A stretch of 32,000 nucleotides of DNA from an uncultured Candidatus Saccharibacteria bacterium (GCA_964396115.1 CAYNDL010000005.1:142-32141), one strand, 5' to 3'; positions 12,658 through 31,247 are shown, numbered from the stretch's first letter. A program made the numbers and translations. Notes: generated from the letters alone by a model not told the origin.

Positions 12658-12663
12658 GATGCC

Positions 12664-13791: not shown

Positions 13792-13820
13792 AACTTTTCA
13801 ACAGGGGCAGTATTGCGCAG

Positions 13821-13829
13821 TGGTATCAT
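13821..13829 (+). promoter_or_regulatory. Candidate extended -10 promoter (TGGTATCAT) 7 nt upstream of the start codon
   Basis: TGn-TATCAT at 13821-13829, then tctaaga, then ATG 13837. No SD. Confidence 0.3.
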
Positions 13830-13836
13830 TCTAAGA

Positions 13837-14946
13837 ATGAGGATAGGAATCGATGCGAGGGCCTTAGGATGGGCAGGATTGGGCAGATACACCAGGAACC
13901 TGTTGAGCTCCCTGCTGGAAGTTTCTTCAGATGAATTCGTAGTTTTTGCTCCCCGTTCATTCGGGAGAGAAATTGCAGAATTCCCTCGGGTTAAATTTGT
14001 CCCAGTTACTTCTTCCTACTACTCGTTCCAAGAACAGACGATCTTCCTGATGTCGCTAATGCAGGAAAATTTGGACCTTATGCATTTCCTGCACTTCAAT
14101 GCTCCAGTGCTGTACCGTCGTCCTTTTGTAGTGACTATTCACGATTTGACGCGGTTCTTTTTTCCCGCCCAAAAAAACAGCGGACAATTCCATCAATGGG
14201 CATATGAGGAAGTATTCCGCTCCGTTGTTCTTCATGCTCAGCGGATAATCACTGTTTCTGAGCACACCCGAAGTGACTTGATTCGATATTTCCCTCAGGT
14301 GGCTAACAAAACGTCAGTCGTCTATGAAGGAGTTGACCATAAAATGCCAAATGGAAGCGGTGATCAAGAACTGCTCCACGCGCTCACTGATTACTTGTTG
14401 TTTGTTGGTGTATGGATGACACATAAAAATATTCCCCGGCTCTTACTGTCTTTTAAAAAAATAGTCGAAAACGGATACTGTGGCTCATTGGTAGTGACTG
14501 GTGAGGGAAAGCCACACCATGTTGATGTCCCGCGTCTAGTTAAAAGCATTGGATTAAAAGACCGGGTGATTCTACCGGGGAAAGTAGATGATGATACGCT
14601 CCGACACCTCTATGCAGGTGCTAAAGCTTTTATTTTTCCCAGTCTCTACGAAGGTTTTGGCTTTCCACCCTTGGAAGCAATGAGTTGCGGTACGCCGGTC
14701 GCGGCTTCACGTGTGTCCAGTATACCTGAAATTCTCGGTGATGCTGCAGCCTATTTTGATCCATACTCGGTTGACGACATGACTAATGCAATAACACATT
14801 TAATAAATGATCAGGGAATGCAGGCAGAGCTGATAGAAAGGGGAAGGAAGCGAGTTTCTGAATATGCGTGGAACACCTGTGCAAGTGAAACTCTGGACGT
14901 ATACACGCGAACTACAGTACCCGCAAGGTCCGGAGTAGTGGTCTAG
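13837..14946 (+). CDS. Glycosyltransferase family 4 (second copy)
   Basis: MRIGIDARAL start. FIFPSLYEGFGFPPLEAMSCGTPV motif. Confidence 0.85.
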   Translation: MRIGIDARALGWAGLGRYTRNLLSSLLEVSSDEFVVFAPRSFGREIAEFPRVKFVPVTSSYYSFQEQTIFLMSLMQENLDLMHFLHFNAPVLYRRPFVVTIHDLTRFFFPAQKNSGQFHQWAYEEVFRSVVLHAQRIITVSEHTRSDLIRYFPQVANKTSVVYEGVDHKMPNGSGDQELLHALTDYLLFVGVWMTHKNIPRLLLSFKKIVENGYCGSLVVTGEGKPHHVDVPRLVKSIGLKDRVILPGKVDDDTLRHLYAGAKAFIFPSLYEGFGFPPLEAMSCGTPVAASRVSSIPEILGDAAAYFDPYSVDDMTNAITHLINDQGMQAELIERGRKRVSEYAWNTCASETLDVYTRTTVPARSGVVV

Positions 14947-15029
14947 TTCCAGTACGGAAGTGGGCACATGTTTTGTAGGCCAAAAATTGTTTGGTCAGCG
15001 CCTTTAACTTTGATACACTTATAAGTTGA

Positions 15030-17840: not shown

Positions 17841-19456
17841 GCAAAATATTTTCTGAGAAAACAAGTAATGGCAGCCTGATTTCGGCCGCCATTTTGGTTG
17901 CCTTGTCGTCCTTTTTAAGCCGCATTCTGGGACTTTTCCGCGACAGGTTATTCGCAGCTCATTTCGGCGCAGGTCCCGAGCTGGATGCTTATTTTGCAGC
18001 GTACCGTATTCCGGATCTGATTTTTAATATCTTGGTACTGGGAACCCTCTCCGCAGCATTTTTGCCCGTATTCTCAACGTATTTGGCTAAAGGAAAAGAA
18101 GGGGAGAAAGAAGCCTTTGATGTGGCAGAAAGCTTGTTCTTCATTACCGTCATAGTGTTGATGCTGTTCGCGCTGGTCCTTTTTGTTTTTGCTCCGAAGA
18201 TAGTTCCCCTTATTGCCCCGGGTTTTGATGAAAACAGGAAAGGTTTAATGATCATGTTGAGCCGGATCATGCTTTTGCAACCGATATTATTGGGAGCCAG
18301 CAGCATCTTGGGTAGTATTTTGACTAGTTTCAATAAGTTTTTTGCATACGCTGCCGCCCCTGTCCTTTATAACGCAGGCATTATTTTCGGTGTTATCTTT
18401 TTTGTTCCCAAATATGGCATCAGCGGTGTGGCGTGGGGAGTTGTACTTGGAGCCGTGATGCATTTCTTGGCACAGGTACCAAGCTCTCTACGTCTTGGTT
18501 TTAGATTCCGTCCCATCCTTAGTTTTCATCATGCAGGGCTCAAGCATATCGGCCGGTTGATGATTCCTCGTTTAATAGGTCTTCTAGCGGGGACAGTTAA
18601 TGATTTTGTTGTTAACTTTATCGGTTCAACTCTGATTGTTGGCAGTATCGCGGTGTACACTTTTGCGGATAATTTGCAGAATGTCCCGATTGGCCTGGTT
18701 GGTATTTCGTTTGCAGTTGCCGCATTCCCACAATTGTCGCAGGCAGCAGCAGACAACGCCTCACTAATGTTCCGCGATACGCTAGTTAAAACAATTCGTT
18801 TGGTATTGTATCTCGCCATGCCGTTATCGGTTTCCATTCTTCTTCTGCGGGCTGAGATAGTGCGGGTTATATTGGGGACAGGTCGTTTCGATTGGGACGA
18901 TACGCGTCTCACCTTTACTGTACTCAGTATCTTAGTATTATCCGTTTTTGCTCAAAGCCTCGTTCCTCTTCTGGCACGAGCTTTCTTTGCTCTTCATGAC
19001 ACTAAAACGCCGATGTTTGCCAGCATTACCACAATAATAATCAATATTATTGGCGCATATTTTCTAGGAACAAGGTTTGGCGTCGTGGGGCTTGCTTGGG
19101 CTTTCAGTATCGCCTCCGTCGTTAATTTCCTTATTCTGCTAACTGCGATCCATACCCAATTAGGCGGATTGAAAGACAGGGAATTTCTCATTGGTCTACT
19201 CAAAATGAGTTTGGCAACGATTTTAGCTGGTGTGACAATCCAAGCACTGAAGTTTCCTCTAGGGACTTTCGTTAATATGCAGACTTTTTTAGGAGTATTT
19301 ACAAAGATGACAGGGGCAGCGTTGGGAGGTGCTGTTGTTTATGCATTGGCCAGTAGCTTGTTGCGTCTCGAAGAATTTGACGTGCTTTTCGCGGGTGTTA
19401 AGCGGTTTAAGTGGGGGAGGCGGGTTTCGGAAACAGCCTCTTCTATTGATGAATAA
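17837..19456 (+). CDS. murJ: Lipid II flippase MurJ/MviN
   Basis: ATG 17837 overlaps the upstream TGA (ATGA). Polytopic membrane protein with the MurJ N-terminal pattern (SRILGLFRDRLFAAHFGAGPELDAYFAAYRIPD). Confidence 0.85.
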   Translation: MSKIFSEKTSNGSLISAAILVALSSFLSRILGLFRDRLFAAHFGAGPELDAYFAAYRIPDLIFNILVLGTLSAAFLPVFSTYLAKGKEGEKEAFDVAESLFFITVIVLMLFALVLFVFAPKIVPLIAPGFDENRKGLMIMLSRIMLLQPILLGASSILGSILTSFNKFFAYAAAPVLYNAGIIFGVIFFVPKYGISGVAWGVVLGAVMHFLAQVPSSLRLGFRFRPILSFHHAGLKHIGRLMIPRLIGLLAGTVNDFVVNFIGSTLIVGSIAVYTFADNLQNVPIGLVGISFAVAAFPQLSQAAADNASLMFRDTLVKTIRLVLYLAMPLSVSILLLRAEIVRVILGTGRFDWDDTRLTFTVLSILVLSVFAQSLVPLLARAFFALHDTKTPMFASITTIIINIIGAYFLGTRFGVVGLAWAFSIASVVNFLILLTAIHTQLGGLKDREFLIGLLKMSLATILAGVTIQALKFPLGTFVNMQTFLGVFTKMTGAALGGAVVYALASSLLRLEEFDVLFAGVKRFKWGRRVSETASSIDE

Positions 19457-21318: not shown

Positions 21319-22038
21319 TCAGGTAACTCGTTGTTTGATTACATGAGCAACCAATGACCTTGCTAATACGTGTGACGAATCCACAAATGGAACATCGGGG
21401 AAATCGGCAATAAATAATGGATAGAGCAGGGATAGTTCGGTGCAGGCAAGCACGATGACTTCTGCTCCCTCTTCCTGCATCTGTCTAATTGCTGGTGTCA
21501 GATTTTTACCTGTACGTGGTTCCCCAGCCTTAATTGCGTAAATAGTTTTCATCACCAGTTCCTGGTTTATTGTTGAAGGCACTATCCAGTCTAGATCTAA
21601 GTTTTCGCGCTGATATACTTGGGCAGCAACCGTTCCGCTTGTTGCTAACAAACCTACTTTTGTCCGTCCATATTTTGCACGTATTACGTCAGTCGTCTTT
21701 TCGATCATGTTTAATACTGGAACACCGACGCCAGCTTGAATTTCTGCGAAGCGGGCATGCGAGGTGTTGCAGGGTATCCCGATGACTGTTGCTCCCGCCG
21801 TCTCCAGTACTTGAGCAGTTTCCTTTATGGCCCTCGCAAAGTCCTTTCCTCTCAAAGGACCGAAAAGGGAAGCGGTGCGGTCGGGAATCTGTGGGTTGGT
21901 GTATGTGATGACTGGAATATGATCTTGGTCGCGTTTTGCTTGGGTCGCCTCAATAATAAGTTTTTGCAGTAAAACCCCCGCCATTGGCCCCATGCCGCCG
22001 ACTATTCCGATGCAACTTTTTTTAACGAATGTTTGCAT
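21319..22038 (-). CDS. Aspartate/glutamate racemase family protein (aspartate racemase-like)
   Basis: IGIVGGMGPMAG plus two catalytic Cys contexts, GIPCNTSHA and LACTELS. Confidence 0.8.
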   Translation of the reverse strand: MQTFVKKSCIGIVGGMGPMAGVLLQKLIIEATQAKRDQDHIPVITYTNPQIPDRTASLFGPLRGKDFARAIKETAQVLETAGATVIGIPCNTSHARFAEIQAGVGVPVLNMIEKTTDVIRAKYGRTKVGLLATSGTVAAQVYQRENLDLDWIVPSTINQELVMKTIYAIKAGEPRTGKNLTPAIRQMQEEGAEVIVLACTELSLLYPLFIADFPDVPFVDSSHVLARSLVAHVIKQRVT

Positions 22039-23089
22039 ATTTTTCTAAATAAGAAATTACTTGTTTTTTAGGGAGAGCCTCTAGTTTGTTCCCAGCTCTT
22101 CCTGACATGGTATCGGCGGCAAAAAGAGCGTCATAAACACTTTCTTCCACACATTCCACCACAGCCAAAAAGAAGTTGGTTAGGTCGTTATCAGTTAAAC
22201 AAGAGTAATTATTCTCACCTTCAACTCCGGCGCGATTTATAGAAAAGGCGATAGCATAGTCTCCACTGCCGTGAGCCATAACTGAGCCAGTCCTTGCCAG
22301 GCCTAAGGGTGCCCTTTTTGCGATTCTCTTTAGTTGTCGTGCAGAAAAAGGTGCATCGGTAGCAATGACGATCATGCAAGACCCATCCGGTAAATCTTTT
22401 TCGATCTTGTAGTCATTTTTTCCGAGAATTTTTCCAATCGGTGCTCCTGCAATGTTCAGTGAGCCGCCAAAATTTGTCTGCAACAGAGTCCCTAGTGTAT
22501 AAGTTTTTCCATTTATTGTTACCAATCTTGATGCAGTTCCGATGCCACCTTTCCATGAGAAACAACGGGTACCGGTGCCAGCTCCGACATTACCGACGGT
22601 AGTTAAATTTGAAAGCATCGCAAAAGCGCTTTCCACGTCATTTGCATCTACAGAATTTTTATGCAGATCGTTTAAAAACCCGTCGTTTGTTTCACCAACG
22701 ACCACGTTGATGCTTTCTGTGGGTTGGAGATCATTTTGATTATTAATTACATGGTCAATAACACCACGCATTACCGGACCAACAGCGAGTGTGTTTGTTA
22801 AGGCGATCGGAGTCTCGATTGTTCCGAGTTCTTCTACTTGGGTTGTTCCCGTAATTTTTCCGTACCCGTTGCCAACATATGTTGCTGCGGGAATTTTGTT
22901 GCGAAAAAGATTCTCGATGCCCGGGTCAATTACCGTGACTCCCGTTCGGACGTCGGTACCATTAACCTTAGTTGAATGACCAACGCGAATATTACCCACA
23001 TCCGTGATTGAGTTGTTATTTCCATATTTTAATAAACTGCTTGAAAAGCCGTATTCAAAAAACCTTTTTTTAGTTGAAGAATTGTCCAT
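22022..23089 (-). CDS. Peptidase S58 (DmpA/BapA-type Ntn aminopeptidase)
   Basis: 355 aa from ATG 23089 (MDNSSTKK...). ITDVGNIRVGHST...TGVTVI, and the self-processing-site-like DGSCMIVIATDAPFSARQLKRIA. The 3' end overlaps the racemase start by 17 nt. Confidence 0.7.
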   Translation of the reverse strand: MDNSSTKKRFFEYGFSSSLLKYGNNNSITDVGNIRVGHSTKVNGTDVRTGVTVIDPGIENLFRNKIPAATYVGNGYGKITGTTQVEELGTIETPIALTNTLAVGPVMRGVIDHVINNQNDLQPTESINVVVGETNDGFLNDLHKNSVDANDVESAFAMLSNLTTVGNVGAGTGTRCFSWKGGIGTASRLVTINGKTYTLGTLLQTNFGGSLNIAGAPIGKILGKNDYKIEKDLPDGSCMIVIATDAPFSARQLKRIAKRAPLGLARTGSVMAHGSGDYAIAFSINRAGVEGENNYSCLTDNDLTNFFLAVVECVEESVYDALFAADTMSGRAGNKLEALPKKQVISYLEKYANIR

Positions 23090-23108
23090 AAGTGGTAGTA
23101 AAATAAAT

Positions 23109-23147
23109 TTCGGATGCCAGAAGCATTGCTGCTTTCTGGCATCCGAA
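23109..23147 (-). terminator. Intrinsic terminator downstream of the amidoligase gene
   Basis: Perfect 14-bp arms ttcggatgccagaa/ttctggcatccgaa with an 11-nt loop. On the minus strand they are followed by AAATTTATTTT. The hairpin lies between stop 23158 and the S58 start at 23089. Confidence 0.65.
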
Positions 23148-23157
23148 TAATGAGGAG

Positions 23158-24954
23158 TCACTCCAACCGGACTGGTGCTACTGCCATGTCGACACGGCCA
23201 TGCACCCTCAAGGTATTGGAGGGTACTGCGCAAGAGTGAACTGAGACTACTTCGCCGCCGACCATCCACGGACGTAGAAGGACACGGCAGTTGAAGATCT
23301 CGCCGGCAGCAAGTTTGGTGTTGAAGACGGGGAGCTGCACGATCCCCGTTTCCAGACGCCGTTGGACGATGAATGGTTGGTTCTGATTCAACCGCTCGCT
23401 GATCCAATCGCGCCAAGTGGCCTGGTTGAGGCCGTGACCCATGAGCACTCCGTAGGAGCGGGCGGTCATGGTATTCGCGCCAGAGAGCTTCATCACCAAG
23501 CTGTCTCTTTTCGCGGCGGGCAACTCTTGCAGTTCGCTAACCGAGTGGGCGTGTACACCGTCCACGCGCAACGGGAAGTCACTAGCAGAGCGCACTAGTT
23601 GCGAGTCAGGAAGAATCTGGTCCAGCACGGAAAAAGTTTGCGGATCCAGTATCTTCCGGAAAAACTCCAAGTGGCTCCGGAAAATCGAAAACCAGGTCTT
23701 GTTGCCGAAATGGGCGAACTCCGGAACCATCCGGACACGACCACTGTGGGCGGCCTTGACCAAGTCAATCAGTTTCCCAGTTGCTTCGAAGATCGGGAAT
23801 TGGCGCCAAACAGTGCCAATTTTGCCGGCCTCGTCGTAAACGTCCTCTGCAGAAACCGTAAGCTTGTCCAGCTGGTCGGTGGTCAGTAGACCTACGTCAT
23901 AACCGGACTCCCGAAGGTGGTTAGTCAGCCAGGCGATCTCGGGGATGTAGCACTTGCTCCAAACGTGCGAAACCACGAAGAGCAGGCGTCCTCGGCTTGT
24001 CAGCCAATCAAAGCAGCGTTTCCACTGTTCTTGATTGATGCCGTACACCAGGTCGAGATAAGCAAGTTCTGCGAACCCTCCCGGCATCTCGTCGTTTTCC
24101 GAAGCGAACACCCCGTCTCCCGTAAAGTGGAGGTCGGGCCGTCGCACTGAAAATTCTTCGACGTTCGGGTAGAGGTACGCTTCGCGCAGGCTAGGATCAA
24201 CATCCACTCCAGCGAAAAGCTTCTCGGCAACCGATGCGTCGCTGCGAATCAGTTGGCTGCTCGCCCTTTCAAAGGCAGAAAAGGCGGACATGGCCCGTCC
24301 TAATTCATGAACGTCGCATTGCAGAGGGTCGTGCGGGATGCGGATCCAGCTGATTCGGGATCCGCGTGGGAGCTCGAGGGCACATTCCTTATCCGCAATG
24401 GATGCGGCAAGGTCAGGTCCCTGATTCAGTCTGGTCCGGATCTGTTCAATCGTATCCGGAATATTTAAGTTGACCGGCGGGCTCTCGCCCTTCCGTGGCC
24501 GTCCCCAAGGGAATTCGCCCCGGAATAATCGCTTCTGAAAATTGCGGTTAAAGTGGGCTGCGACCTGTTCAGAACAATTGCGGTATCCACTATCGATCAC
24601 GCATTTGTTACCGATCTTCACGCCCCACTGGGCACCGCAGGACCAATCCGGCATCCCTCCCCGTTGTCTGCTAGTGAAGGTAAACCTTCGTTGGGTGAAG
24701 GCGGAATCGAACAGTACTACTGCCGATTCCTTGGAGATGCCGCTTTCGAATAGTGCCTGCACTTCGGAGACGTCACGCAGGATGCGGAGTTCTTGAGGCA
24801 CAGCTGCGCCTTCCAGGGTTTCCAAGAAGGACGTGTCCTGTAGTCTTTGGCTCAACCGTCGGATTACTTCTTCGCTGTGGCTGTTGCCGGCAAGGGTGAA
24901 GTATATCCGGGGCACATCGTACATGCCGCGCAGGGTTTCCGTTACTTTCAACAT
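23158..24954 (-). CDS. Glutathionylspermidine-synthase-like (pre-ATP-grasp/ATP-grasp) amidoligase with an unrecognised ~270-aa N-terminal domain
   Basis: 598 aa. The C-terminal ~330 aa resemble, from memory, blocks of E. coli Gsp/YgiC: RRPDLHFTGDGVFASENDEMPGG, VWRQFPIFE, MVPEFAHFGNKTWFSIF, SLVMKLSGANTMTARSYGV. GAGGAG SD sits 8 nt upstream. GC-rich relative to the neighbours. Confidence 0.55.
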   Translation of the reverse strand: MLKVTETLRGMYDVPRIYFTLAGNSHSEEVIRRLSQRLQDTSFLETLEGAAVPQELRILRDVSEVQALFESGISKESAVVLFDSAFTQRRFTFTSRQRGGMPDWSCGAQWGVKIGNKCVIDSGYRNCSEQVAAHFNRNFQKRLFRGEFPWGRPRKGESPPVNLNIPDTIEQIRTRLNQGPDLAASIADKECALELPRGSRISWIRIPHDPLQCDVHELGRAMSAFSAFERASSQLIRSDASVAEKLFAGVDVDPSLREAYLYPNVEEFSVRRPDLHFTGDGVFASENDEMPGGFAELAYLDLVYGINQEQWKRCFDWLTSRGRLLFVVSHVWSKCYIPEIAWLTNHLRESGYDVGLLTTDQLDKLTVSAEDVYDEAGKIGTVWRQFPIFEATGKLIDLVKAAHSGRVRMVPEFAHFGNKTWFSIFRSHLEFFRKILDPQTFSVLDQILPDSQLVRSASDFPLRVDGVHAHSVSELQELPAAKRDSLVMKLSGANTMTARSYGVLMGHGLNQATWRDWISERLNQNQPFIVQRRLETGIVQLPVFNTKLAAGEIFNCRVLLRPWMVGGEVVSVHSCAVPSNTLRVHGRVDMAVAPVRLE

Positions 24955-25042
24955 CGTTCTTTCTCCTCAATTGTGTAAGGTGCGTTTTTCCAGCTTCGGT
25001 GCTGGCGAGTCACTCCGCTTGATTACGCCAATCCCGAAACAA

Positions 25043-25068
25043 AAACCTCCTGGTTTCCCAGGAGGTTT
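25043..25068 (-). terminator. Strong intrinsic terminator (or attenuator) 88 nt upstream of the amidoligase start codon
   Basis: Minus strand reads AAACCTCCTGG-GAAA-CCAGGAGGTTT followed by TTGTTTCGGG, so the T-run is TTTTTGTTT. Confidence 0.65.
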
Positions 25069-25088
25069 AGCTTTTGTCTAATAATTTA

Positions 25089-25211
25089 TTACAAAGTGGC
25101 TATAGAAACTCCTGGGTTTACGTGCGCAAGGTGCTTAATAAAAATGACGACCGTACGCAAGTCGGTTTTTGTAAACCAATACATGAAGCAGGAATTTCTC
25201 AAAATTTTCAT
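25089..25211 (-). CDS. Candidate 40-codon mini-gene (MKILRNSCFMYWFTKTDLRTVVIFIKHLAHVNPGVSIATL)
   Basis: Hand-translated and not in the ORF track. It is bracketed by a consensus-like promoter ending 7 nt before its ATG and by the terminator 20 nt after its stop. It could equally be a non-coding RNA. Confidence 0.25.
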   Translation of the reverse strand: MKILRNSCFMYWFTKTDLRTVVIFIKHLAHVNPGVSIATL

Positions 25212-25218
25212 AGTTTAA

Positions 25219-25247
25219 TTAATAAGTTCTTCCGTTAAGCAAGTCAA
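25219..25247 (-). promoter_or_regulatory. Candidate promoter driving the mini-gene or leader
   Basis: Minus strand reads TTGACT (25242-25247), 17 nt, TATTAA (25219-25224), 7 nt, ATG 25211. Confidence 0.4.
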
Positions 25248-25438: not shown

Positions 25439-25467
25439 TTGACTCTTTTTACGTACTTTGTTATGTT
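25439..25467 (+). promoter_or_regulatory. Candidate promoter of the Wzz-like gene
   Basis: TTGACT (25439-25444), 17 nt, TATGTT (25462-25467), 8 nt, ATG 25476. Confidence 0.4.
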
Positions 25468-25475
25468 TTTTCGCT

Positions 25476-26198
25476 ATGCCAAAAAAACGGCCTTTTCAAT
25501 TTTTCTTGCTCTTCATTGCAGCGGGTATTTTTTTGGTTGCGGTTGGCTTTGTTGGTCTATTGCCGATGGCATCGGAAACAAAAGTGTTGGTAGTTTCTCA
25601 GGCTCCTGTTGGTGCAGGTGACTTTAATCTTGCCGTTGAAGCAACTGAAAAAGTTACTCGGACTTTGGCAGAGTACGCAAATTTTGAAGAATTCCGTGAA
25701 GGCATTTTGGCGAGCGGTTTTCAGTCAACAAACGAATTGTTTGTTGGTTCGAAAGAGGAGTCCTATAACTTATGGAGACGGGTTATTAAAATTGAGCCCG
25801 TTGAGGATGCGTTTGTCATTAAAATAAAAGCAAAAGGAGCCTCTTTTTTTGAGTCGCAACAACTTGTCGCGGTGATTGGACAGTACCTGGTTTTGGAAAT
25901 ACCAAGAATTATCGGCGGCGGACTTGTGAGGGGAATTGTTGATCGTCCGACTGTAGTTTATGTCTGGCCCAGAGAGCTTTCCATATCGATAGCCGTGGCT
26001 GGAGCGTTTTCTTTGGTGGCGGGTTCGATTGGCCTAGTTTTTCTAATGCTCAACCGCTATTTTTCACAATCTATGAAACCTGTAGCAGTTAGTATGAAAA
26101 CTTCAAACTTCGCGGGTAAAACCGGCGGGCCAAAAGTAAAGGATGAGGAAGCGAAAGAACTTCTTCAGAAATTTCTTAACGACAATCAAGGCAAATAA
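25476..26198 (+). CDS. Two-TM envelope protein with polysaccharide co-polymerase (Wzz)-like topology
   Basis: An N-terminal TM helix (FFLLFIAAGIFLVAVGFVGLL), about 150 extracytoplasmic residues and a C-terminal TM helix (ISIAVAGAFSLVAGSIGLVFLML). It heads a glycan gene cluster. The call rests on topology only. Confidence 0.4.
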   Translation: MPKKRPFQFFLLFIAAGIFLVAVGFVGLLPMASETKVLVVSQAPVGAGDFNLAVEATEKVTRTLAEYANFEEFREGILASGFQSTNELFVGSKEESYNLWRRVIKIEPVEDAFVIKIKAKGASFFESQQLVAVIGQYLVLEIPRIIGGGLVRGIVDRPTVVYVWPRELSISIAVAGAFSLVAGSIGLVFLMLNRYFSQSMKPVAVSMKTSNFAGKTGGPKVKDEEAKELLQKFLNDNQGK

Positions 26199-26241
26199 AT
26201 TTATCTTTGCTTTTCATAAAGAAAACTTCTAAACTACGGAC

Positions 26242-26670
26242 ATGATTGAACAAGTACAAAAAGAACCATGTAAGAAAGTAACGACCTATTCGGCAGGAAC
26301 AAAGGATCCGAATGGGCACCTGATTGAACTTTATAAAGACGGTGATAAAACAGTCGTTTATCTAACCGTTGCTAAGCCGGGAGCCTTTAAGGGCTACCAT
26401 CTGCATAACGAACGCCAGAGTCATTATGTTTGCGTCCGAGGCAAAGCCAAAATAACTGTTGTGGAGGGAACACAAAAAGTTGAGCACATTTTGGATGCGG
26501 AAAAACCAGAAAGATTGCTTCTTCCCACGAAGGTATATATCGGGATCGAAAACATCGGTGACGAAGAAGCTTGGATGATTAACTTTCCTCATCCCGCGTA
26601 TGATCCATCTCTGAAAGGCGAACAAGAAGACAAAACTCCCGCGGAGATTGAGCAACAACTGAAAGGGTAA
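26242..26670 (+). CDS. RmlC-like cupin (candidate dTDP-4-dehydrorhamnose 3,5-epimerase or sugar ketoisomerase)
   Basis: 142 aa. Cupin core DPNGHLIELYK...FKGYHLHNERQSHYVCVRGKAKI. It sits upstream of rmlB and rmlD, and no other rmlC is in the window. Confidence 0.5.
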   Translation: MIEQVQKEPCKKVTTYSAGTKDPNGHLIELYKDGDKTVVYLTVAKPGAFKGYHLHNERQSHYVCVRGKAKITVVEGTQKVEHILDAEKPERLLLPTKVYIGIENIGDEEAWMINFPHPAYDPSLKGEQEDKTPAEIEQQLKG

Positions 26671-26673
26671 GCA

Positions 26674-27681
26674 ATGAAAGTATTAGTCACAGGTGGTGCT
26701 GGTTCGATCGGGACCTATGTCGTTCGCGCACTTTTGTCTCGCGGGGACGAGGTCGTAATCGTTGACGACTTCAACGATTTTTATGATCCAGAATTGAAGC
26801 GTGCCCGTTTGGCGGCGTTGCTTCATGGTTTCCAGATGCCCGAAATAATCGAATGCGACATTCGGGAAGAAAAGAAGCTCGGAGAAATTTTTGCCCGCGT
26901 TAAGCCGGTGAAAGTGATTCATCTGGCTGCATGGGCGGCCGTCCGTCCCTCAGTGGAAAATCCACTTCTTTACACCCAGGTGAACGTGGATGGCACAGTA
27001 AATGTTTTTCAGGAGTCGGTTAAGAACGGGGTAGAGAATATTGTATTCGCTTCCTCGTCATCCGTTTATGGCCGAAACCTGGTGCCGCCTTACAGCGAAG
27101 ATGTCCCGTGTGACATGCCTATCGCTCCGTACGCTGCTTCAAAGAGGACCGGTGAATTGTACGGCTGGATGTACCACTACTTACACAAATTGCCGATCGC
27201 GTGCCTCCGCTTCTTCACTGTTTACGGACCGTGGATCCGTCCGGACATGGCAACGTGGAGATTTACGGAAAGAATCGATCAGGGCAAGGAAATCAGCCTG
27301 AACAAGTTCGCCGTGGACGGTTCCGAAGTTAAGAGAGACTTCACATATGTTGATGATATTGTAGCCGGTATCCTTGCTAGTCTGGATCGCAATAAGGCAT
27401 TCGACATTATCAATCTCGGCAACAACGATCCTGTTGCCTTAACTAGGTTTGTGAAAGCAATCGAAAATGGGATTGGCAAAGAAGCCAAGATAGTTGAGCG
27501 CCAACTGCCTGCTGAAGAAGCAATTGCCACGGCTGCCGACCTGACTCATGCCAAAAAAGTTTTGGGCTATGCTCCAACAACTTCCATCGAGCAAGGTATC
27601 GCCAATTTCACTGCTTGGTACAAAGGCGAATATAAGGAAAGATTCCCCGAAGGGATCGCCAAGTCGCCATACTGGTCTTAA
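26674..27681 (+). CDS. NAD-dependent sugar epimerase, UDP-glucuronate 4-epimerase-like SDR
   Basis: VLVTGGAGSIG, YAASKRTGE (YxxxK), and RFFTVYGPWIRPDMA, which is characteristic of the UDP-GlcA 4-epimerase group. Confidence 0.75.
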   Translation: MKVLVTGGAGSIGTYVVRALLSRGDEVVIVDDFNDFYDPELKRARLAALLHGFQMPEIIECDIREEKKLGEIFARVKPVKVIHLAAWAAVRPSVENPLLYTQVNVDGTVNVFQESVKNGVENIVFASSSSVYGRNLVPPYSEDVPCDMPIAPYAASKRTGELYGWMYHYLHKLPIACLRFFTVYGPWIRPDMATWRFTERIDQGKEISLNKFAVDGSEVKRDFTYVDDIVAGILASLDRNKAFDIINLGNNDPVALTRFVKAIENGIGKEAKIVERQLPAEEAIATAADLTHAKKVLGYAPTTSIEQGIANFTAWYKGEYKERFPEGIAKSPYWS

Positions 27682-27685
27682 CCTC

Positions 27686-27710
27686 AAGCCCCGGCTGGTC
27701 CGGGGTTTTA
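27686..27710 (+). terminator. Intrinsic terminator
   Basis: Stem ccccgg/ccgggg (27689-27694 / 27700-27705) followed by TTTT. Confidence 0.55.
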
Positions 27711-27754
27711 AAAAACTTGGTTTTCCACCTTAAATTTGTTATCCTCGCTTTATA

Positions 27755-28756
27755 ATGAACATACTTGTAACAGGCGGTGCGGGGTTTATCGGCTCAGCTT
27801 TTGTACGTCTTTTAGCGAAGAAAAGATCGGACTGGAAAGTTGTGGTCCTCGATAAGCTAACGTACGCCGGAAATCTGGACAACTTAAAGGATATAGAAGG
27901 AAAATATAAATTCGTTAAGGGAGACATCGCCGATGCACAGTTGGTTCGCGACACACTGGCAAAAGAGGGTATCGATGCCATTGTTAATTTTGCAGCAGAG
28001 TCGCATGTAGACCGTTCTATTATGAGTGGTCTGGAGTTTATTGAGACCGATGTGATGGGTACGTACGTTTTGTTAAACGAGGGACGAGCAGCAGGTATCA
28101 AACGCTATGTGCAGGTAAGCACTGATGAAGTGTACGGAACAATCCCGACTGGCTCCTGGACTGAAGATTCACCGGTGTTGCCTAATAGTCCGTATTCTGC
28201 TTCAAAAGCTGGGGGCGATATGCAGGTTCGAGCTGCGTTTAGAACGTATGGTTTTCCCGCAATGATTACGCGTGGTTCCAATACGTATGGACCGCACCAG
28301 TACCCTGAGAAACTAATCCCGCTCTTCATTACGAACTTAATGGAAGGTAAAAAAGTTCCTGTTTATGGTGACGGGATGCAGGTGCGCGACTGGCTTTATG
28401 TTGACGACCACTGCAATGGCATATTGACCGTTTTAGAAATGGGAGTGCCTGGTGAAATTTACAACCTTGGGAGTGAAGAAGAAAAGAAAAATATTGAAGT
28501 CACTAGAGCCCTTATCAGTACTCTTGGTTTGAATGAAGACAGTATCGAATACGTCAAGGACCGGGCTGGGCACGACCGGCGTTATTCCATGAACAGCGCG
28601 AAAACAGCGGCTATTGGGTGGCACCCAGAAGTTAATTTTGAAGAGGGGTTACGCCGTACAGTTGAGTGGTACAAGAATAACCAAGACTGGTGGAAGCCCC
28701 TGAAAGACGGTTCGTACAACGAGTATTACAAGCAACAGTATATCGAGCGTAAGTAA
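27755..28756 (+). CDS. rfbB: dTDP-glucose 4,6-dehydratase
   Basis: ILVTGGAGFIGS, DKLTYAGNL, STDEVYG, YSASKAGGD and the RmlB-typical C-terminus (RPGHDRRY-like AGHDRRYSM). Confidence 0.9.
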   Translation: MNILVTGGAGFIGSAFVRLLAKKRSDWKVVVLDKLTYAGNLDNLKDIEGKYKFVKGDIADAQLVRDTLAKEGIDAIVNFAAESHVDRSIMSGLEFIETDVMGTYVLLNEGRAAGIKRYVQVSTDEVYGTIPTGSWTEDSPVLPNSPYSASKAGGDMQVRAAFRTYGFPAMITRGSNTYGPHQYPEKLIPLFITNLMEGKKVPVYGDGMQVRDWLYVDDHCNGILTVLEMGVPGEIYNLGSEEEKKNIEVTRALISTLGLNEDSIEYVKDRAGHDRRYSMNSAKTAAIGWHPEVNFEEGLRRTVEWYKNNQDWWKPLKDGSYNEYYKQQYIERK

Positions 28757-28757
28757 T

Positions 28758-29600
28758 ATGCAGGTATTAATTTTGGGTGCGAAAGGTATGTTGGGCAACG
28801 CCCTGCAAAGAGCTTTTGAATCCGAAGAAGTGATTGCGTGGGACAGGGATGACTTGGATATAACAAATAGGGAAGAAGTTTTAAGGCATATCCAAGCAAT
28901 CGAGCCGGATGTTGTGATTAATGCGGCAGCATATACGAATGTTGAACAAGCAGAAGCAGAACCTGAAATTGCCAACAAGGTAAATGGCGAAGCAGTTGGC
29001 TACATTGCTGAAGCCTGTGCTGGCTTAAACATCCCCGTTATCCACTATTCAACGGACTACGTGTTTGCTTCAGAGAAAAAAGAAGGATATTCGGAAGAAG
29101 AAGTACCCAATGGTGTCCCGATAAATACCTATGGTCGTTCGAAGTTGTTGGGTGAAAAAAAGTTACAAGAGAAAACTGGTAAGTTCTGGTTGATCCGGAC
29201 CGCCTGGCTGTTTGGCCCTTACGGAAAAAATTTCGTGGAGACAATGGTCCGCATGGGAAAAGAAAAAAAGGAACTGAGCGTGGTAGGGGATCAGCACGGC
29301 AGTCCTACTTATACCAAGGACCTCGCACAAGCCACCTTCAAGTTGGTACACGATAATCCTGAGTATGGTGTTTATCATCTTACAAACGGCGGTAACACTA
29401 CCTGGGCTGAATTTGCTGAAACAATTTTTAAGCTTTGCGGAATGGATGTTGTTGTGAAGCCAATTTCTTCTGTTGAATATTCAGGGAAAGCCAAACGTCC
29501 GCAGTGGTCTGTTTTAAAAAATACAAAAAGGCCTCTATTGCGCGACTGGCGCGAGGCGGTAAAGGACTATATTAATGTTTTAAACGTAAAAAATCCATGA
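28758..29600 (+). CDS. rfbD: dTDP-4-dehydrorhamnose reductase
   Basis: VLILGAKGMLG, INAAAYTNVEQAE, YGRSKLLGE, DQHGSPTYTKDLA are typical RmlD blocks. Confidence 0.9.
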   Translation: MQVLILGAKGMLGNALQRAFESEEVIAWDRDDLDITNREEVLRHIQAIEPDVVINAAAYTNVEQAEAEPEIANKVNGEAVGYIAEACAGLNIPVIHYSTDYVFASEKKEGYSEEEVPNGVPINTYGRSKLLGEKKLQEKTGKFWLIRTAWLFGPYGKNFVETMVRMGKEKKELSVVGDQHGSPTYTKDLAQATFKLVHDNPEYGVYHLTNGGNTTWAEFAETIFKLCGMDVVVKPISSVEYSGKAKRPQWSVLKNTKRPLLRDWREAVKDYINVLNVKNP

Positions 29601-30160
29601 TCAATGTTGACCTAAAAAAAGAATCATCAGAACTCGGCCAGGTCTTGTCCGCCTTGGATGAAAACTTTTTTGCCAGTGTCGCAAGGGCGGCGGAACTATT
29701 AAATAAAACTTTCGAGAACGGAAACAAAGTGCTCATTTGTGGCAACGGTGGAAGTGCTGCCGAAGCCCAGCATTTCTCTGATGAAATGATTGGCCGGTTT
29801 AAAAAAGACAGGCGCCCTTATCCTGTGATTGCGCTGACGGCAGATAGTGCTGCGATCACTTGTATTGCCAATGATTTTGGTTATGAGGAAGTTTTTGCCA
29901 GGCAAGTTGAGGGTTTGGGTAAAGAAGGTGATTTGTTAATTGGTATTTCGACGTCCGGCAATTCTAAAAATATATTGAAGGCGGTAGAGGTGGCTAAAGG
30001 AAAAGGGATGAAGGTGTTGGCTTTGACCGCTCCCAGGGGATCACTGAGGGAAGTCTCGGACGTATCAATTGAATCACCTGCGACAGTAACAGCAAGGATC
30101 CAAGAAATCCATTTGCACGTCGTGCATCTCTTAAGTGAATATTTTGAAGAACAAACTTAA
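29597..30160 (+). CDS. gmhA: Sedoheptulose-7-phosphate isomerase (SIS domain)
   Basis: ICGNGGSAAEAQHFSDEMIGRF and ISTSGNSKNIL. ATGA overlap with rfbD. Confidence 0.85.
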   Translation: MINVDLKKESSELGQVLSALDENFFASVARAAELLNKTFENGNKVLICGNGGSAAEAQHFSDEMIGRFKKDRRPYPVIALTADSAAITCIANDFGYEEVFARQVEGLGKEGDLLIGISTSGNSKNILKAVEVAKGKGMKVLALTAPRGSLREVSDVSIESPATVTARIQEIHLHVVHLLSEYFEEQT

Positions 30161-30177
30161 CTTGTAAACTGAAAACC

Positions 30178-30738
30178 ATGAGTGACGAAGGAAAGAAAAT
30201 AATAATTTTGGATAGAGATGGGACAATAAATGTCGATAAAAAGTTTGTGCACCGCATCGAGCAAGTAGAGCTTATCGAGGGAGTGCCGGATGGTCTTCGC
30301 TTGTTGGAAGGCGCCGGTTACATACTCGCAATTGCGACCAATCAATCCGGGGTCGCACGGGGAAGGTTCACTGAGAGCGATGTCCAAAATGTGAATAACT
30401 ACGTCCGCACCATTCTGGCAGAACGAGGTGTACATATAAGAGCCATTGCCTACTGCCCCTTTCACGTCGAAGGTTCGGTGCCTAAGTATGCCGTTGATAA
30501 TGAATGTCGCAAACCAAAGACCGGAATGGCCAAACAGATTGAGGGTGTGATAGGCCCCATTGATTATAAGAATTCGTGGTCAATCGGCGACAAGATTAGT
30601 GATCATGAGTTTGGTGTTGCTTTGGGTATGAAAACCGCCTTAATCAGGAGTGAATACTGGACCGAGGCTCCAAATCCAGCCCCGACTTTGGTGGTTAATT
30701 CTCTGCTGGAAGCAGCACAAAAAATTAAAACACTATAA
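30178..30738 (+). CDS. gmhB: D,D-heptose 1,7-bisphosphate phosphatase (HAD-IIIA)
   Basis: ILDRDGTIN, ATNQSGVARG, CRKPKTGM and GDKISD motifs. Confidence 0.8.
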   Translation: MSDEGKKIIILDRDGTINVDKKFVHRIEQVELIEGVPDGLRLLEGAGYILAIATNQSGVARGRFTESDVQNVNNYVRTILAERGVHIRAIAYCPFHVEGSVPKYAVDNECRKPKTGMAKQIEGVIGPIDYKNSWSIGDKISDHEFGVALGMKTALIRSEYWTEAPNPAPTLVVNSLLEAAQKIKTL

Positions 30739-30740
30739 CT

Positions 30741-31247
30741 ATGCAATTCGATCCCGTTTATTCGTGGTGTGCAGGCAAGGTATTGTCCAAGGAGGAAGCC
30801 AAACAAAAAGCAGATGAATTACGTACCCAGGGCAAAAAAATCGTGACCGTTAACGGCTCTTTCGATTTATTGCATCCCGGCCATCTTATTTTATTGTCCG
30901 AAGCCAAGAAGCAGGGCGATGTACTTTTTGTTGGCATAAACACTGATTGCTCGGTTAAGCAATATAAAGGGGAAAGCAGGCCAATAATTCCAGAAGACGA
31001 AAGGATCGCAATGTTGGGAGGGCTCGCTGCTGTAGATTTCATTGTGCCGATCCCAGAATCTGAAGCAGGACGTGAAATCCTACTCACCGTACACCCAAAT
31101 GTTCATGTGAATGGATCAGAGTATGGCGAGCCGGAGACGTGGGTCGAGTGGCCGGCAATCTCAGAAGTTGGCGCCACTCCTTATAAAGTTACCCGCCAAC
31201 CAAATTTGGCGACAACCGATATTATTAAAAAAATAAAAGAACTGTAA
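30741..31247 (+). CDS. Cytidylyltransferase-fold protein, RfaE domain II-like (heptose-1-phosphate adenylyltransferase)
   Basis: VNGSFDLLHPGHLILLSEAKKQGDVLFVGINTD (an HxGH-type nucleotidyltransferase motif). Position directly after gmhA and gmhB. Confidence 0.7.
   Translation: MQFDPVYSWCAGKVLSKEEAKQKADELRTQGKKIVTVNGSFDLLHPGHLILLSEAKKQGDVLFVGINTDCSVKQYKGESRPIIPEDERIAMLGGLAAVDFIVPIPESEAGREILLTVHPNVHVNGSEYGEPETWVEWPAISEVGATPYKVTRQPNLATTDIIKKIKEL

Follow-up and report, generated by a model that had tools for sequence, protein, structure and literature searches.

Eukaryotic-type glutathione synthetases (2hgs, 8fbz, 5oes and 1m0w) and the fungal E-64 ligase Cp1B (9cjn) share a circularly permuted ATP-grasp architecture that forms amides via an acyl-phosphate. 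Cp1B joins amino acids to a C4 dicarboxylic acid; it too had been annotated as 'hypothetical', and its sequence shows no detectable similarity to those of other ATP-grasp enzymes (PMC12568646). The fold group also includes the glutathionylspermidine synthetase (GspS) family, with E. coli Gsp (2io8), in which the ligase is paired with a hydrolase present as a fused domain, YgiC/YjfC (7uk8/7uk6), trypanothione synthetase (TryS, 2vob) and Mfla_0391 (3n6x), the latter being a CP_ATPgrasp 'putative GspS'. Among regulatory systems, the trp/his/phe leaders and the antibiotic-responsive leaders such as bmrCD and mef/mel consist of a short ORF, mutually exclusive antiterminator and terminator helices, and a U-tract, with the stop codon placed so that the terminating ribosome masks the antiterminator strand. 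The window, namely the whole 32,000-nt stretch of DNA that was analysed, contains on its minus strand a 598-aa ORF (23158-24954, here called X), whose presence was confirmed, and which resembles the former enzymes in its predicted fold and the latter systems in its leader. A module built around a novel ATP-grasp ligase, with D-Asp-like chemistry and leader attenuation, is the best explanation of the observations as a whole, with a probability of roughly 0.6.

The AF2 model of full-length X (pLDDT 92.3) yielded 54 Foldseek matches in the PDB at E ≤ 1e-3, and the best 50 of these 54 belong, with the exception of 3k1t, to the circularly permuted ATP-grasp group, with probability 1.0. The entry 3k1t is described as a putative gamma-glutamylcysteine synthetase. 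Glutathione synthetases (E 4e-13) and Cp1B (E 2.5e-12) are the best structural matches, with probability 1.0, a target-normalised TM of about 0.55 and only 10-13% identity, followed by Gsp, YgiC/YjfC, TryS and 3n6x (E 7e-10 to 1e-7); overall, the E values go from 1e-13 to 1e-7 with 9-14% identity. No family was found for X in Pfam at E ≤ 0.1, the GSP_synth, CP_ATPgrasp and GSH_synth models all being unmatched, nor for its distant homologues at the same threshold; NCBIfam also gave no match, and a PDB sequence search was negative even when the family profile was used, so that neither Pfam nor the PDB assigns X to the eukaryotic-type glutathione synthetases by sequence. The Pfam comparison with GSP_synth, CP_ATPgrasp and CHAP that had been recommended by the first-pass annotation was likewise negative. 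Its proposal of a GspS/YgiC-type amidoligase is thus borne out at the fold level but not at the sequence level.

The proposed domain boundary at residue 271 needs to be corrected. Homologues of about 450 aa lack only residues 1-170 and match X from residue ~170 onward, and the Foldseek alignments cover about 500 columns, so that the ligase core begins at about residue 170 (residues ~171-598 plus stop, 23158-24444, minus strand), and from the AF2 model it can be confidently predicted to adopt the circularly permuted ATP-grasp ligase fold. The X family comprises 109-121 clusters, nearly all of full-length proteins of ~600 aa, with no Pfam domain in any. Invariant motifs of the core are RRPDxH...SENDEMPGG, WRQFPIFE, VPEFxHxGNKxW and LVxKxxGAN..ARSxGV, and the residues R272, D274, E286, D288, E289, K419, K489, R499, E552 and R561 are invariant in the family. 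These acidic, Lys and Arg residues occur in ATP-grasp-like motifs, and may include the ATP/Mg2+ ligands of such enzymes (two Lys, an acidic E-x-N-type pair and an Arg). The first motif, near the start of the core, resembles in sequence the R-x-D...E-x-[N/D]...PGG type of the GspS family. The core of X is a new sequence family within the glutathione synthetase/GspS/YgiC/Cp1B fold group, and X would represent a previously undescribed ATP-dependent amide ligase with a novel extra domain, its ligase function being predicted from the modelled fold.

This extra domain (residues 1-165; 24460-24954, minus strand) distinguishes X from glutathione synthetase and Cp1B, along with its bacterial (CPR) origin and the presence of a racemase and a Peptidase_S58 protein in the same operon. 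When modelled alone, it gave a well-defined AF2 prediction (pLDDT 92.6, pTM 0.87), according to which it is a separate and novel alpha/beta domain, and its signature residues are T20, D83, P102, W110 and P149-W150-G151. No signal was obtained against Pfam, PDB profiles or with hhalign, confirming the initial impression of an unrecognised N-terminal region. The only recurrent structural neighbour is bacterial peptidyl-tRNA hydrolase (Pth): the Foldseek matches are weak (E about 3e-3, TM 0.42-0.50, rmsd 6-8 Å, 11% identity), but the top 23 are all Pth from many species, and span the whole domain. On the other hand, the signature residues (D83, W110 and PWG) differ from those of Pth, the alignment contains no conserved His and hence no counterpart of the Pth catalytic residue, and hhalign, run with an approximate sequence of E. 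coli Pth, gives a probability of 0.09%. The domain is also found as standalone proteins of 155-195 aa that end in basic K/R-rich tails.

It had been proposed that X is a horizontally acquired, self-contained cassette encoding a divergent, bifunctional GspS-like ligase with a CHAP-like amidase at the N-terminus, marked by a Cys-rich patch. The length of X is indeed similar to that of E. coli Gsp, and GspS is among the structural matches. However, the Cys positions of the patch are variable (C106 is conserved in 12%, C118 in 31% and C127 in 84% of the sequences), and in residues 1-270 of the family no Cys or His is conserved except C127. The fold of the N-terminal domain is not papain-like, with no papain or CHAP enzyme among its Foldseek matches. 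Since both the conserved Cys/His pair and the papain fold are missing, a CHAP-like amidase was rejected. X also differs from Gsp in that PF03738 is not matched, and in that the hydrolase paired with the ligase is encoded on its own, as an S58 protein, instead of being fused to it.

The compositional basis of the same proposal is sound. The GC content of X, estimated by hand as 55-63%, was computed to be 0.560, the highest among the window genes, versus a mean of 0.462 in the 30 other window genes (z = 3.3), and GC3 is 0.649 versus 0.446 (z = 3.6), so that X does deviate from its neighbours. A canonical Shine-Dalgarno sequence, GAGGAG (24963-24968, minus strand), lies 8 nt 5′ of the X ATG, as first noted, while only 7 of the 31 window genes are preceded by an SD-like motif of any kind; most X homologues likewise have a strong Shine-Dalgarno. 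Strong hairpins are present on both sides of X (−21.5 and −28.5 kcal/mol upstream and downstream, respectively). However, the GC3 of X exceeds that of its module partners also in 17/22 and 23/23 other loci, so that the GC3 excess, like both flanking hairpins, is a family-wide trait of X loci rather than a sign of foreignness. Furthermore, the upstream gene is divergent, and therefore the upstream hairpin belongs to the leader of X itself, where it is predicted to form the terminator arm of an attenuator instead of an insulator.

Neither is the gene self-contained. The order X, Peptidase_S58, Asp_Glu racemase is shared by the window and about 45 loci of Patescibacteria whose flanking genes are unrelated, and essentially all loci of sufficient length keep it. 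The three genes co-evolve, their identity matrices being correlated (Mantel r = 0.75-0.86), and the same locus (L035) provides the nearest relative of all three (66%, 71% and 57% identity). The labelled homologues and loci are nearly all from Patescibacteria, which argues against a foreign origin. Thus, the physical observations made initially stand, whereas the inference of an insulated, foreign, single-gene cassette fails; this reading is largely refuted and very improbable indeed. Instead, X comes first among the genes of a conserved, Patescibacteria-specific module, whose parts are, in order, a putative promoter and a Trp-containing leader ORF, a predicted antiterminator/terminator switch, a structured 5′UTR element, the Shine-Dalgarno and X, a hairpin, and the S58 and racemase genes.

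The S58 gene (22022-23092, minus strand), directly 3′ of X in nearly all loci, encodes a 356-aa protein of the DmpA/BapA-type N-terminal aminopeptidases, which matches PF03576 with E = 1.9e-105 over profile positions 1-306 of 307. The following 239-aa ORF (21319-22038, minus strand), which overlaps the end of the S58 gene, encodes a PLP-independent Asp-type amino-acid racemase (Pfam Asp_Glu_race, E = 7e-37). It passes the cut-offs of both the NCBIfam model NF052483 for the CuyB cysteate racemase (215.5 bits, cut-off 190) and TIGR00035 asp_race (165 bits, cut-off 93), whereas MurI models score below theirs (glut_race, 35 versus 147). The best-naming NCBIfam model is that for cysteate and not Asp, and no CuyA lyase was found near the module. 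The typing, for which PMC11193023 provides support, is the same in ten other loci, eight of which pass the CuyB cut-off. A ligase lacking the N-terminal domain also adjoins a racemase, with an M20 peptidase replacing S58.

The obligatory partners of X are an Asp/cysteate-type racemase and an aminopeptidase whose family cleaves D- or beta-amino acids from N-termini, and the most likely chemistry thus appears to be one in which a D-Asp-like acidic amino acid is ligated. As expected from the fold class, X would use ATP to phosphorylate the substrate carboxylate, and the resulting acyl-phosphate would then be coupled to an amine yielding an amide bond. The acceptor of the D-Asp-like amino acid, whose D-isomer the racemase would supply, could be an amino acid, a peptide or an amine, and the S58 enzyme may hydrolyse or recycle the product of X.

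That the gene of a ligase is consistently accompanied by that of an Asp-type racemase also brings to mind the D-aspartate ligase Aslfm of Enterococcus, which is encoded beside an aspartate racemase. By analogy, X could be a peptidoglycan side-chain ligase adding D-Asp to a wall precursor, with S58 trimming it. ATP-grasp chemistry is compatible with such a role, and the module of the window is surrounded by envelope genes encoding MurJ, glycosyltransferases and nucleotide-sugar enzymes. However, this neighbourhood is not conserved in the other genomes compared, and Aslfm is a classical, non-permuted ATP-grasp enzyme whereas the core of X is predicted to be permuted. Moreover, a constitutive wall function has no obvious need for an attenuator sensitive to stalling, and the X family is patchy, a pattern scan of 185,579 species representatives having detected it in only 24. 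With these considerations, a peptidoglycan ligase is hardly probable.

The leader that precedes X carries the predicted attenuator just mentioned. The motif TTGACT-17-TATTAA (25219-25247, minus strand; −35 at 25242-25247, 17-nt spacer, −10 at 25219-25224) is probably the leader promoter, although a promoter scan did not list it, as its −10 ends in A; the corresponding motif of locus L008 is TTGACG-17-TACAAT. The −10 ends only 7 nt before the ATG of an upstream ORF, so that the mRNA of the latter would be leaderless or nearly so, and TATA-like boxes are found 5-15 nt 5′ of this ATG in many homologous leaders. The upstream ORF (uORF; 25089-25211, minus strand) comprises 40 codons plus the stop (MKILRNSCFMYWFTKTDLRTVVIFIKHLAHVNPGVSIATL) and is conserved: an ATG-initiated ORF of 30-75 codons (median, 40) is present at this site in 33 of 37 non-redundant leaders, versus a mean of 12.8 (maximum 22) in shuffled sequences and 13 on the reverse strand. 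A near-invariant Trp codon, TGG at 25176-25178 (minus strand) in the window, is present in 29/37 leaders (shuffle mean 5.9, maximum 12); among the 33 peptides, 31 contain Trp, in 29 cases exactly one, and the residue that follows the conserved Trp is F, M, L or A.

The 3′ end of the uORF contains, in its codons P-G-V-S, the antiterminator 5′ strand or strand A (CCAGGAGTTTC, 25105-25115, minus strand), which is complementary to strand B (AAACCTCCTGG, 25058-25068), the 5′ arm of the terminator. The latter, corresponding to what had been called the upstream terminator (25037-25068, minus strand), is completed by strand C (CCAGGAGGTTT, 25043-25053), its 3′ arm, and by the U-tract TTGTTT (25037-25042). 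The hairpin (25043-25068) has an 11-bp stem with a GAAA loop and a folding energy of −21.5 kcal/mol, and is followed by UUGUUU, while the A:B fold is calculated at −19.4 kcal/mol (z = −3.9). In 23 of 37 leaders, versus about 2 expected, there is a segment that can pair with B (p ≤ 0.05); strand A covaries with the locus-specific terminator stems (5′ arm, B), and lies inside the uORF in 26/26 cases. The distance between the uORF stop codon and strand B is also conserved (median 26 nt, IQR 20-28). CCTCC...GGAGG hairpins are concentrated at this site, 11 of the 15 found in 243 kb of related loci being within 200 nt upstream of X versus about 0.26 expected, but only in 19/37 terminators do the 9 nt past the stem include 4 T or more.

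From its sequence, the whole looks like a conserved leader-peptide, i.e. ribosome-mediated, transcription attenuator, with termination being predicted. Less in line with this, substitutions by codon position in the uORF (139/145/187 differences, with about 24% of the codon changes synonymous) show only a weak coding signature. The leader differs from the known attenuators listed above in having three strands instead of four, so that absence of translation is predicted to lead to read-through, just one conserved Trp codon in place of a series of regulatory codons, and regulated genes that are not those of Trp biosynthesis. The conserved CCUCC/GGAGG theme of the stem and the presence of a second structured RNA element after it are further distinctive features. 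Rfam returned no leader family at gathering score for the window leader, and a permissive search with this and five other loci gave only matches far below it. The same leader also precedes standalone N-domain genes and ligases lacking the N-domain.

Upstream-encoded peptides are commonly modified by ATP-grasp ligases, as in microviridins, graspetides and RimK systems. The uORF could accordingly encode a functional peptide, substrate or partner of the ligase (RiPP-like or RimK-like), with the hairpin setting the peptide-to-enzyme ratio. Its conserved position and length, the near-invariant Trp followed by F/M/L, and the peptidase encoded in the module would fit. However, apart from Trp the peptide evolves almost neutrally, and no conserved core or recognition motif was found in the peptides. 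The geometry (strand A in the 3′ end of the ORF, the stop 20-28 nt before B, and A:B covariation) is needed for attenuation but not for a precursor, and the uORF also precedes standalone N-domain genes without a ligase. By taking into account these points, a peptide substrate is quite unlikely, and an attenuator is preferred.

In such an attenuator, translation of the uORF to its stop codon would place the ribosome on strand A, leaving B free to pair with C, so that transcription would stop before X. If the ribosome stalls before this point, either on the conserved Trp codon or past it, or if the uORF is poorly translated, A would remain free and pair with B, the terminator would not form and X would be transcribed. 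The conserved Trp may serve to sense Trp-tRNA or as an arrest motif; the short Trp-to-A spacing in the clade of L005, L019 and L021 (12-14 nt) implies that stalling may occur elsewhere than on the Trp codon. Our best guess is that X ligates a D-Asp-like acidic amino acid and that its synthesis is induced by ribosome stalling.

Between the terminator stem and X a conserved structured 5′UTR element (24985-25042, minus strand) was detected by covariation and a covariance model. Its helix P1, (U)UUCGG paired with CCGAA, encloses AUUG, a variable hairpin (P2) and CAGCA, and is followed by GCUGGAA; a CCAGC:GCUGG pairing suggested by the sequence could form a pseudoknot. On a MAFFT alignment (A4), 84.5% of the P1 and P2 cells are paired, with compensatory changes in 11 of 13 pairs, and the covariation score is 0.507 versus 0.241 in shuffles, none of 500 reaching 0.507, and 0.08-0.22 in slid controls. 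The covariance model scores the window at 37.6 bits, and all 19 of its significant matches in 450 kb are just upstream of X-family genes. No Rfam family matches it. Although absent from some leaders, the element is, as judged from these covariation data, a second covarying RNA element, new to Rfam.

That the leader would be on when uORF translation is impaired invites a different interpretation of the module, as a response to translation or D-amino-acid stress. Stalling at the Trp codon, caused for example by D-Trp or a tRNA-charging problem, would induce X, whose Pth-like N-domain, also found standalone with ArfB/SmpB-like basic tails, would act on a tRNA-linked or ribosome-bound substrate, and the racemase and a D-aminopeptidase would dispose of D-amino acids. 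Pth being the only structural resemblance of the N-domain, the sharing of the leader with the standalone K/R-tailed proteins, the occurrence of D-aminopeptidases among S58 enzymes and the Asp type of the racemase are consistent with it. Yet the likeness to Pth is weak both in structure and with hhalign, no conserved His replaces the catalytic one, the ATP-grasp ligase is left without an obvious role, and the scheme is entirely inferential, so that it is unlikely as an account of the module. We assign a low but not negligible probability to the broader proposal that the whole is a translation-coupled stress regulon of a new kind in ultra-small bacteria. If so, a Trp-containing arrest or attenuation peptide would sense decoding trouble (D-amino acids, poor tRNA charging), and a novel riboswitch-like RNA element would work beside the leader peptide. 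Both would turn on a novel Pth-like domain, whose substrates would be linked to tRNA or bound to the ribosome; this domain would be either joined to an ATP-grasp ligase or, as a standalone protein, equipped with a basic tail like that of rescue factors, and the products would be processed by a D-aminopeptidase and a racemase. At minimum, the 5′UTR element would then represent a new RNA class that binds a ligand or a protein.

In the preferred reading, that of an attenuated module for D-Asp-like ligation, the 5′UTR element and the hairpin after X may provide additional control points. The hairpin (23109-23147, minus strand), directly after the X stop codon and followed by AUUUAUUUU, has a folding energy of −28.5 kcal/mol (z = −8.2 versus shuffles), and, separating X from the S58 and racemase genes, is putatively a stabiliser or a partial terminator. 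A strong hairpin occurs at the equivalent site in the 25 homologous loci examined, in many of them with a U-run.

The gene at 23158-24954 (minus strand), here called X, encodes a protein of 598 aa, as had been described in the first-pass annotation. No family was found for it in Pfam at E<=0.1 and no match in NCBIfam, among PDB sequences or in PADLOC, and a profile built from 58 sequences of the X family gave no match to the PDB. At 90% identity the relatives of X number 109 clusters, and at 50% they number 121 representatives. The close ones, nearly all of ~600 aa and aligned over their full length, are all without annotation, and the taxonomic labels of the relatives, where given, are nearly all those of Patescibacteria (Uhr-, Sung-, Lipton- and Staskawiczbacteria, Paceibacterota). 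An AlphaFold2 model obtained with the family alignment (pLDDT 92.3, pTM 0.79) was compared with the PDB by Foldseek, and the matches came from a single fold group: eukaryotic-type glutathione synthetases (8fbz, 2hgs, 5oes, 3kal, 1m0w; E 4e-13 to 1e-10), the fungal E-64 ligase Cp1B (9cjn; E 2.5e-12), the CP_ATPgrasp protein 3n6x (E 7e-10), E. coli YjfC/YgiC (E 8e-10 to 5e-8), and GspS and trypanothione synthetase (E about 1e-7), all at 9-14% identity over about 450-530 aligned columns. Because of these matches, the initial assignment of X as a GspS/YgiC-type amidoligase is right at the level of the fold, which we regard as established, and of the predicted class of chemistry, but not at that of the sequence. 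On the modelled structure, X represents a family of ATP-grasp amide ligases that is new by its sequence. Cp1B, which couples a C4 dicarboxylic acid with an amino acid, was also formerly a 'hypothetical protein' with undetectable sequence similarity to other ATP-grasp enzymes (PMC12568646), and X is like it in both respects.

Four layers emerged from the exhaustive search for relatives of X: full-length ones (~600 aa), others of ~450 aa in which only residues ~170-598 are matched, distant ones (~430-480 aa) in which residues 270-595 are matched, and small ones (155-195 aa) restricted to residues ~10-160. From the sizes and coverage of these layers it follows that the ligase core begins near residue 170, and not at the domain boundary at 271 initially proposed, and that residues 1-165 (N-domain) are an independent module and a new protein domain. 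The two-domain architecture of X is also regarded as established. Pfam is blank for the distant homologues (~430-480 aa, residues 270-595), for the ligases devoid of the N-domain and for the standalone N-domains. Distant ligase-core homologues with 25-30% identity over residues 270-595, and no Pfam match, are encoded at loci L009 (5001-6374) and L010 (protein P0143, 457 aa), and suggest that a wider, uncharacterised ATP-grasp family extends beyond Patescibacteria. They lie immediately 3' of a gene for RibF (FAD synthetase) and 5' of one for a thioredoxin-reductase-like protein, with HEAT-repeat and PATR-repeat proteins nearby, and no consistent functional clue was found in the context of the ~457-aa homologue.

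The N-domain profile has no match in Pfam or the PDB. When modelled alone (pLDDT 92.6, pTM 0.87), the N-domain yielded weak Foldseek neighbours, the top 23 being bacterial peptidyl-tRNA hydrolases (Pth; E about 3e-3, TM 0.42-0.50). The comparison with Pth by hhalign gave a probability of 0.09%, so that neither hhalign nor the profile searches confirmed the hint of a Pth given by the fold. A response to translation or D-amino-acid stress, in which the N-domain would act in a Pth-like manner, is considered improbable. Signature residues of the N-domain are T20, D83, P102, W110 and P149-W150-G151. The Cys-rich patch previously pointed out is not conserved (C106 12%, C118 31%, C127 84%), no conserved His was found in the domain, and the CHAP-like amidase suggested by analogy with E. 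coli Gsp is rejected, both from residue conservation and from the fold. The standalone N-domain proteins (P0158, P0159, P0164, P0170, P0174, P0177, P0181, P0183, P0190, P0196, P0203, P0209; among the loci, L062:2413-2886 and L064:5001-5504) are 155-195 aa long and end, shortly past the invariant PWG, in a K/R-rich tail of 20-35 residues that recalls ribosome- or RNA-binding tails. The neighbours of their genes vary, with an Orn/DAP decarboxylase upstream in one case and a Zip transporter downstream in the other, and no consistent functional clue was found in these contexts.

Contrary to the view of a self-contained, single-gene cassette, X has conserved partners. In the window the next genes downstream, on its own strand, are a Peptidase_S58 gene of the DmpA/BapA type (E = 1.9e-105) and then one of the Asp/Glu-racemase family. 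The order X, S58, racemase was found in about 45 loci, gathered from individual look-ups, species-representative genomes and metagenomes, with flanks that are unrelated between loci, and the exceptions are mostly incomplete contigs. The S58 and racemase genes usually overlap or abut. At locus L007 the X homologue is accompanied by the racemase only, and at one locus a ligase lacking the N-domain is located between an M20 peptidase and a racemase. Enzymes of the S58 family cleave off N-terminal D- or beta-amino acids. The window racemase is of the aspartate-racemase type, scoring above the cut-off of TIGR00035 and the equivalog cut-off of CuyB while the MurI models failed, and this typing also holds in 8 of 10 other loci. 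The PLP-independent Asp racemase family counts CuyB, a cysteate racemase, among its characterised members (PMC11193023). The trio points to D-/acidic-amino-acid peptide chemistry. That X is a peptidoglycan D-Asp ligase would also draw on an aspartate-type racemase, and is judged unlikely. In a related Patescibacteria genome, bAvd and, after it, a gene for a reverse transcriptase (RVT_1) were observed about 5 kb from the module (L004:13276-13770); the two are the hallmark pair of a diversity-generating retroelement.

The physical observations initially made on X were all confirmed. Its GC content, 0.560, is the highest among the window genes, of which the 30 others that were delimited average 0.462 (sd 0.030; z = 3.3), and its GC3 is 0.649 versus 0.446 (z = 3.6). 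The Shine-Dalgarno (SD) sequence GAGGAG (24963-24968) is found 8 nt 5' of the ATG, in a window where any SD-like motif precedes only 7 of 31 genes, and the downstream hairpin (23109-23147) has a calculated stability of -28.5 kcal/mol (z = -8.2). What they had been taken to indicate, namely foreign origin and insulation, is not retained, the GC3 excess and the hairpins being conserved properties of the module. The identity matrices of X, S58 and racemase correlate across 18 loci (Mantel r = 0.75-0.86, p<=5e-4), and locus L035 is the nearest relative of the window for all three genes (66%, 71% and 57% identity, respectively). The GC3 of X exceeds that of S58 by a mean of 0.13 (17/22 loci, p = 1e-4), that of the racemase by 0.13 (18/21 loci) and that of other neighbouring genes by 0.07 (18/25 loci, p = 0.005), while S58 and racemase are 0.07 lower than other neighbours. 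In an independent metagenome set, X has a higher GC3 than S58 in 23 of 23 loci, and a strong hairpin was found 3' of the X stop codon in the 25 loci examined. Thus, a recent horizontal transfer of X alone is rejected, on the grounds of co-evolution, the common closest relative and the family-wide GC3 contrast. The GC3 gap between X and its partners could, for instance, stem from selection on how the mRNA folds or how stable it is, or from expression at different levels.

Elevated GC and a canonical SD were also observed in three other genes of the window, although most genes of this genome have no SD: an amidohydrolase/cytosine-deaminase-like gene (3331-4500, minus strand; GC 0.544, GC3 0.60, AGGAGG), a small ORF at 9027-9416 (plus strand; GC 0.61 patch, GGAGG), whose N-terminus (MKDKLMLMLVAIMAIGPPALAMA...) looks like a signal peptide and for which Pfam and Rfam gave no match, and an HD-domain gene (9608-10888, plus strand; GC 0.509, GC3 0.58, AGGAG). 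Such genes may form a distinct class, either acquired or differently expressed.

The window gene upstream of X (25458-26198, plus strand) is divergent and, therefore, the hairpin on the X side (25043-25068, -21.5 kcal/mol) cannot be its terminator. Rather than an insulator, as first interpreted, the hairpin is part of X's own leader, a putative attenuator. A terminator-like hairpin is present 40-180 nt 5' of X in nearly all loci, often with a AAACCUCC...GGAGGUUUU theme. That it represents a generic style of terminator was rejected, since 243 kb of loci contain 15 CCTCC...GGAGG hairpins and 11 of them fall within 200 nt upstream of X (expected, about 0.26). Upstream of the 5' arm (strand B), a near-copy of the 3' arm (strand C) is found, strand A, which follows the stem sequence even where stems differ entirely between loci, as at L033 (strand C, TCAGGAGCTGGTTTG; strand A, TCGGGAGCTGGTCTG) and L049 (strand C, TCCGCGGCGGTTT; strand A, GCCGCGGCGATAT). 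When tested against shuffles of the upstream sequence, the complementarity of A to B has p<=0.05 in 23 of 37 leaders, redundant ones having been removed. An upstream ORF (uORF; ATG, 30-75 codons, ending 60-260 nt 5' of X) is present in 33 of the 37, as opposed to a mean of 12.8 (maximum 22) in shuffles and 13 on the reverse strand. The uORF has a median of 40 codons and contains strand A in its 3' end in 26/26 cases, and its stop precedes strand B by 20-28 nt (IQR). In the window, a candidate promoter (TTGACT-17-TATTAA, 25247-25219) is followed by the uORF (25211-25089, Trp codon at 25178-25176), strands A (25115-25105), B (25068-25058) and C (25053-25043) and a U-tract (25042-25037), all on the minus strand, with calculated stabilities of -19.4 kcal/mol for A:B, before strand C is made, and -21.5 kcal/mol for B:C.

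Trp is found in 31 of 33 non-redundant uORF peptides, exactly once in 29, and in 25 of the 31 the next residue is F, M, L or A. Outside the Trp the peptide evolves almost freely, no strong coding signature was found in the uORF beyond a weak third-position excess, and no conserved leader peptide was found between strands A and B. The proposal that a uORF-type peptide is a RiPP-like substrate of X is unlikely to be correct. The anatomy and covariation of the leader, taken as established, argue for ribosome-mediated transcription attenuation, of which the mechanism would be as follows. A ribosome at the uORF stop would hide strand A, allowing B:C to form and transcription to be terminated; with a ribosome stalled upstream, or with poor translation of the uORF, free strand A would capture strand B and the polymerase would continue into X. 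A leader of this type, with uORF, attenuator and UTR parts, is also found 5' of each of the standalone N-domain genes at L064 and L062, and the leader likewise precedes a ligase without the N-domain (L008).

A further block, located 3' of the terminator and 5' of the SD, is common to most leaders. The 5' strand of a helix, P1, directly follows the U-tract and its 3' strand follows a CCAGCR motif. P1 encloses an AAUUGA junction together with a second hairpin, P2, which is variable; a GCUGGA motif 3' of P1 could, from its sequence, pair with CCAGC. Covariation was tested on a MAFFT alignment (A4) that had not been fitted to the structure: 84.5% of the P1 and P2 cells are paired, compensatory changes occur in 11 of 13 pairs, and the covariation score is 0.507 versus 0.241 for shuffles (reached by 0/500) and 0.08-0.22 for slid controls. 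With 15 sequences as seed, a covariance model gave 19 significant matches on the X strand of 450 kb, all just 5' of X-family genes and including non-seed loci, with the window match at 24985-25042 (37.6 bits); the versions at L022, L037 and L054 score better. The element is absent from some clades. No Rfam 15 family matches the leader or the element, and no T-box, Trp/Phe leader or riboswitch was found.

By taking into account fold, partners and leader, X would form an amide bond via an acyl-phosphate intermediate, with substrates that would involve a D-Asp-like acidic amino acid produced by the racemase; S58 would hydrolyse or recycle the product, and expression of X would rise upon ribosome stalling on the uORF. 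No prior description of the system was found in Pfam, NCBIfam, Rfam, PADLOC or the searchable literature. ATP-grasp ligases, leader-peptide attenuators and structured cis-regulatory RNAs are known kinds, of which the module contains new examples, combined with a new protein domain. Patescibacteria (CPR) have tiny genomes with many unannotated genes, and very little is known of their gene regulation. Here, one 'hypothetical' protein has led to a new ligase family, a new domain, a conserved enzyme trio and an elaborate cis-regulatory leader, which, to our knowledge and within the searchable literature, would be among the earliest leader-peptide attenuators described for the CPR radiation. The module, being compact and conserved, is accessible to direct testing, and the system could expose a metabolite or stress signal relevant to the episymbiotic lifestyle of CPR.

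As for the rest of the window, X is flanked by envelope-glycan genes that are not kept in other X loci: on one side (25458-31247, plus strand) cupin/WxcM-like, three NAD-dependent epimerase/dehydratase, SIS (GmhA-like), GmhB-like phosphatase and cytidylyltransferase-like genes, and on the other (12646-19456, plus strand) two GT4 glycosyltransferases, a 936-aa DUF4012 protein and MurJ. A tRNA scan of the window found no tRNA. A 502-aa ORF (1784-3292, plus strand) has a weak, sub-threshold Baseplate_J-like match (E = 3.3e-4; 20.5 bits versus a cut-off of 21.1) and is preceded by a 363-aa ORF with no family match; the region, which is next to a tRNA_SAD-domain gene, could be a remnant related to a phage or contractile system. 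A 25-nt inverted repeat without spacer (8898-8947, 80% complementary), at the end of a run of ribosomal-protein genes (ending at 8901), is probably the terminator of their operon. Finally, a LexA-type repressor gene (LexA_DNA_bind and Peptidase_S24; 11974-12636, minus strand), beside a cupredoxin-like gene (10969-11427, minus strand), is a sign of an SOS-type regulator.
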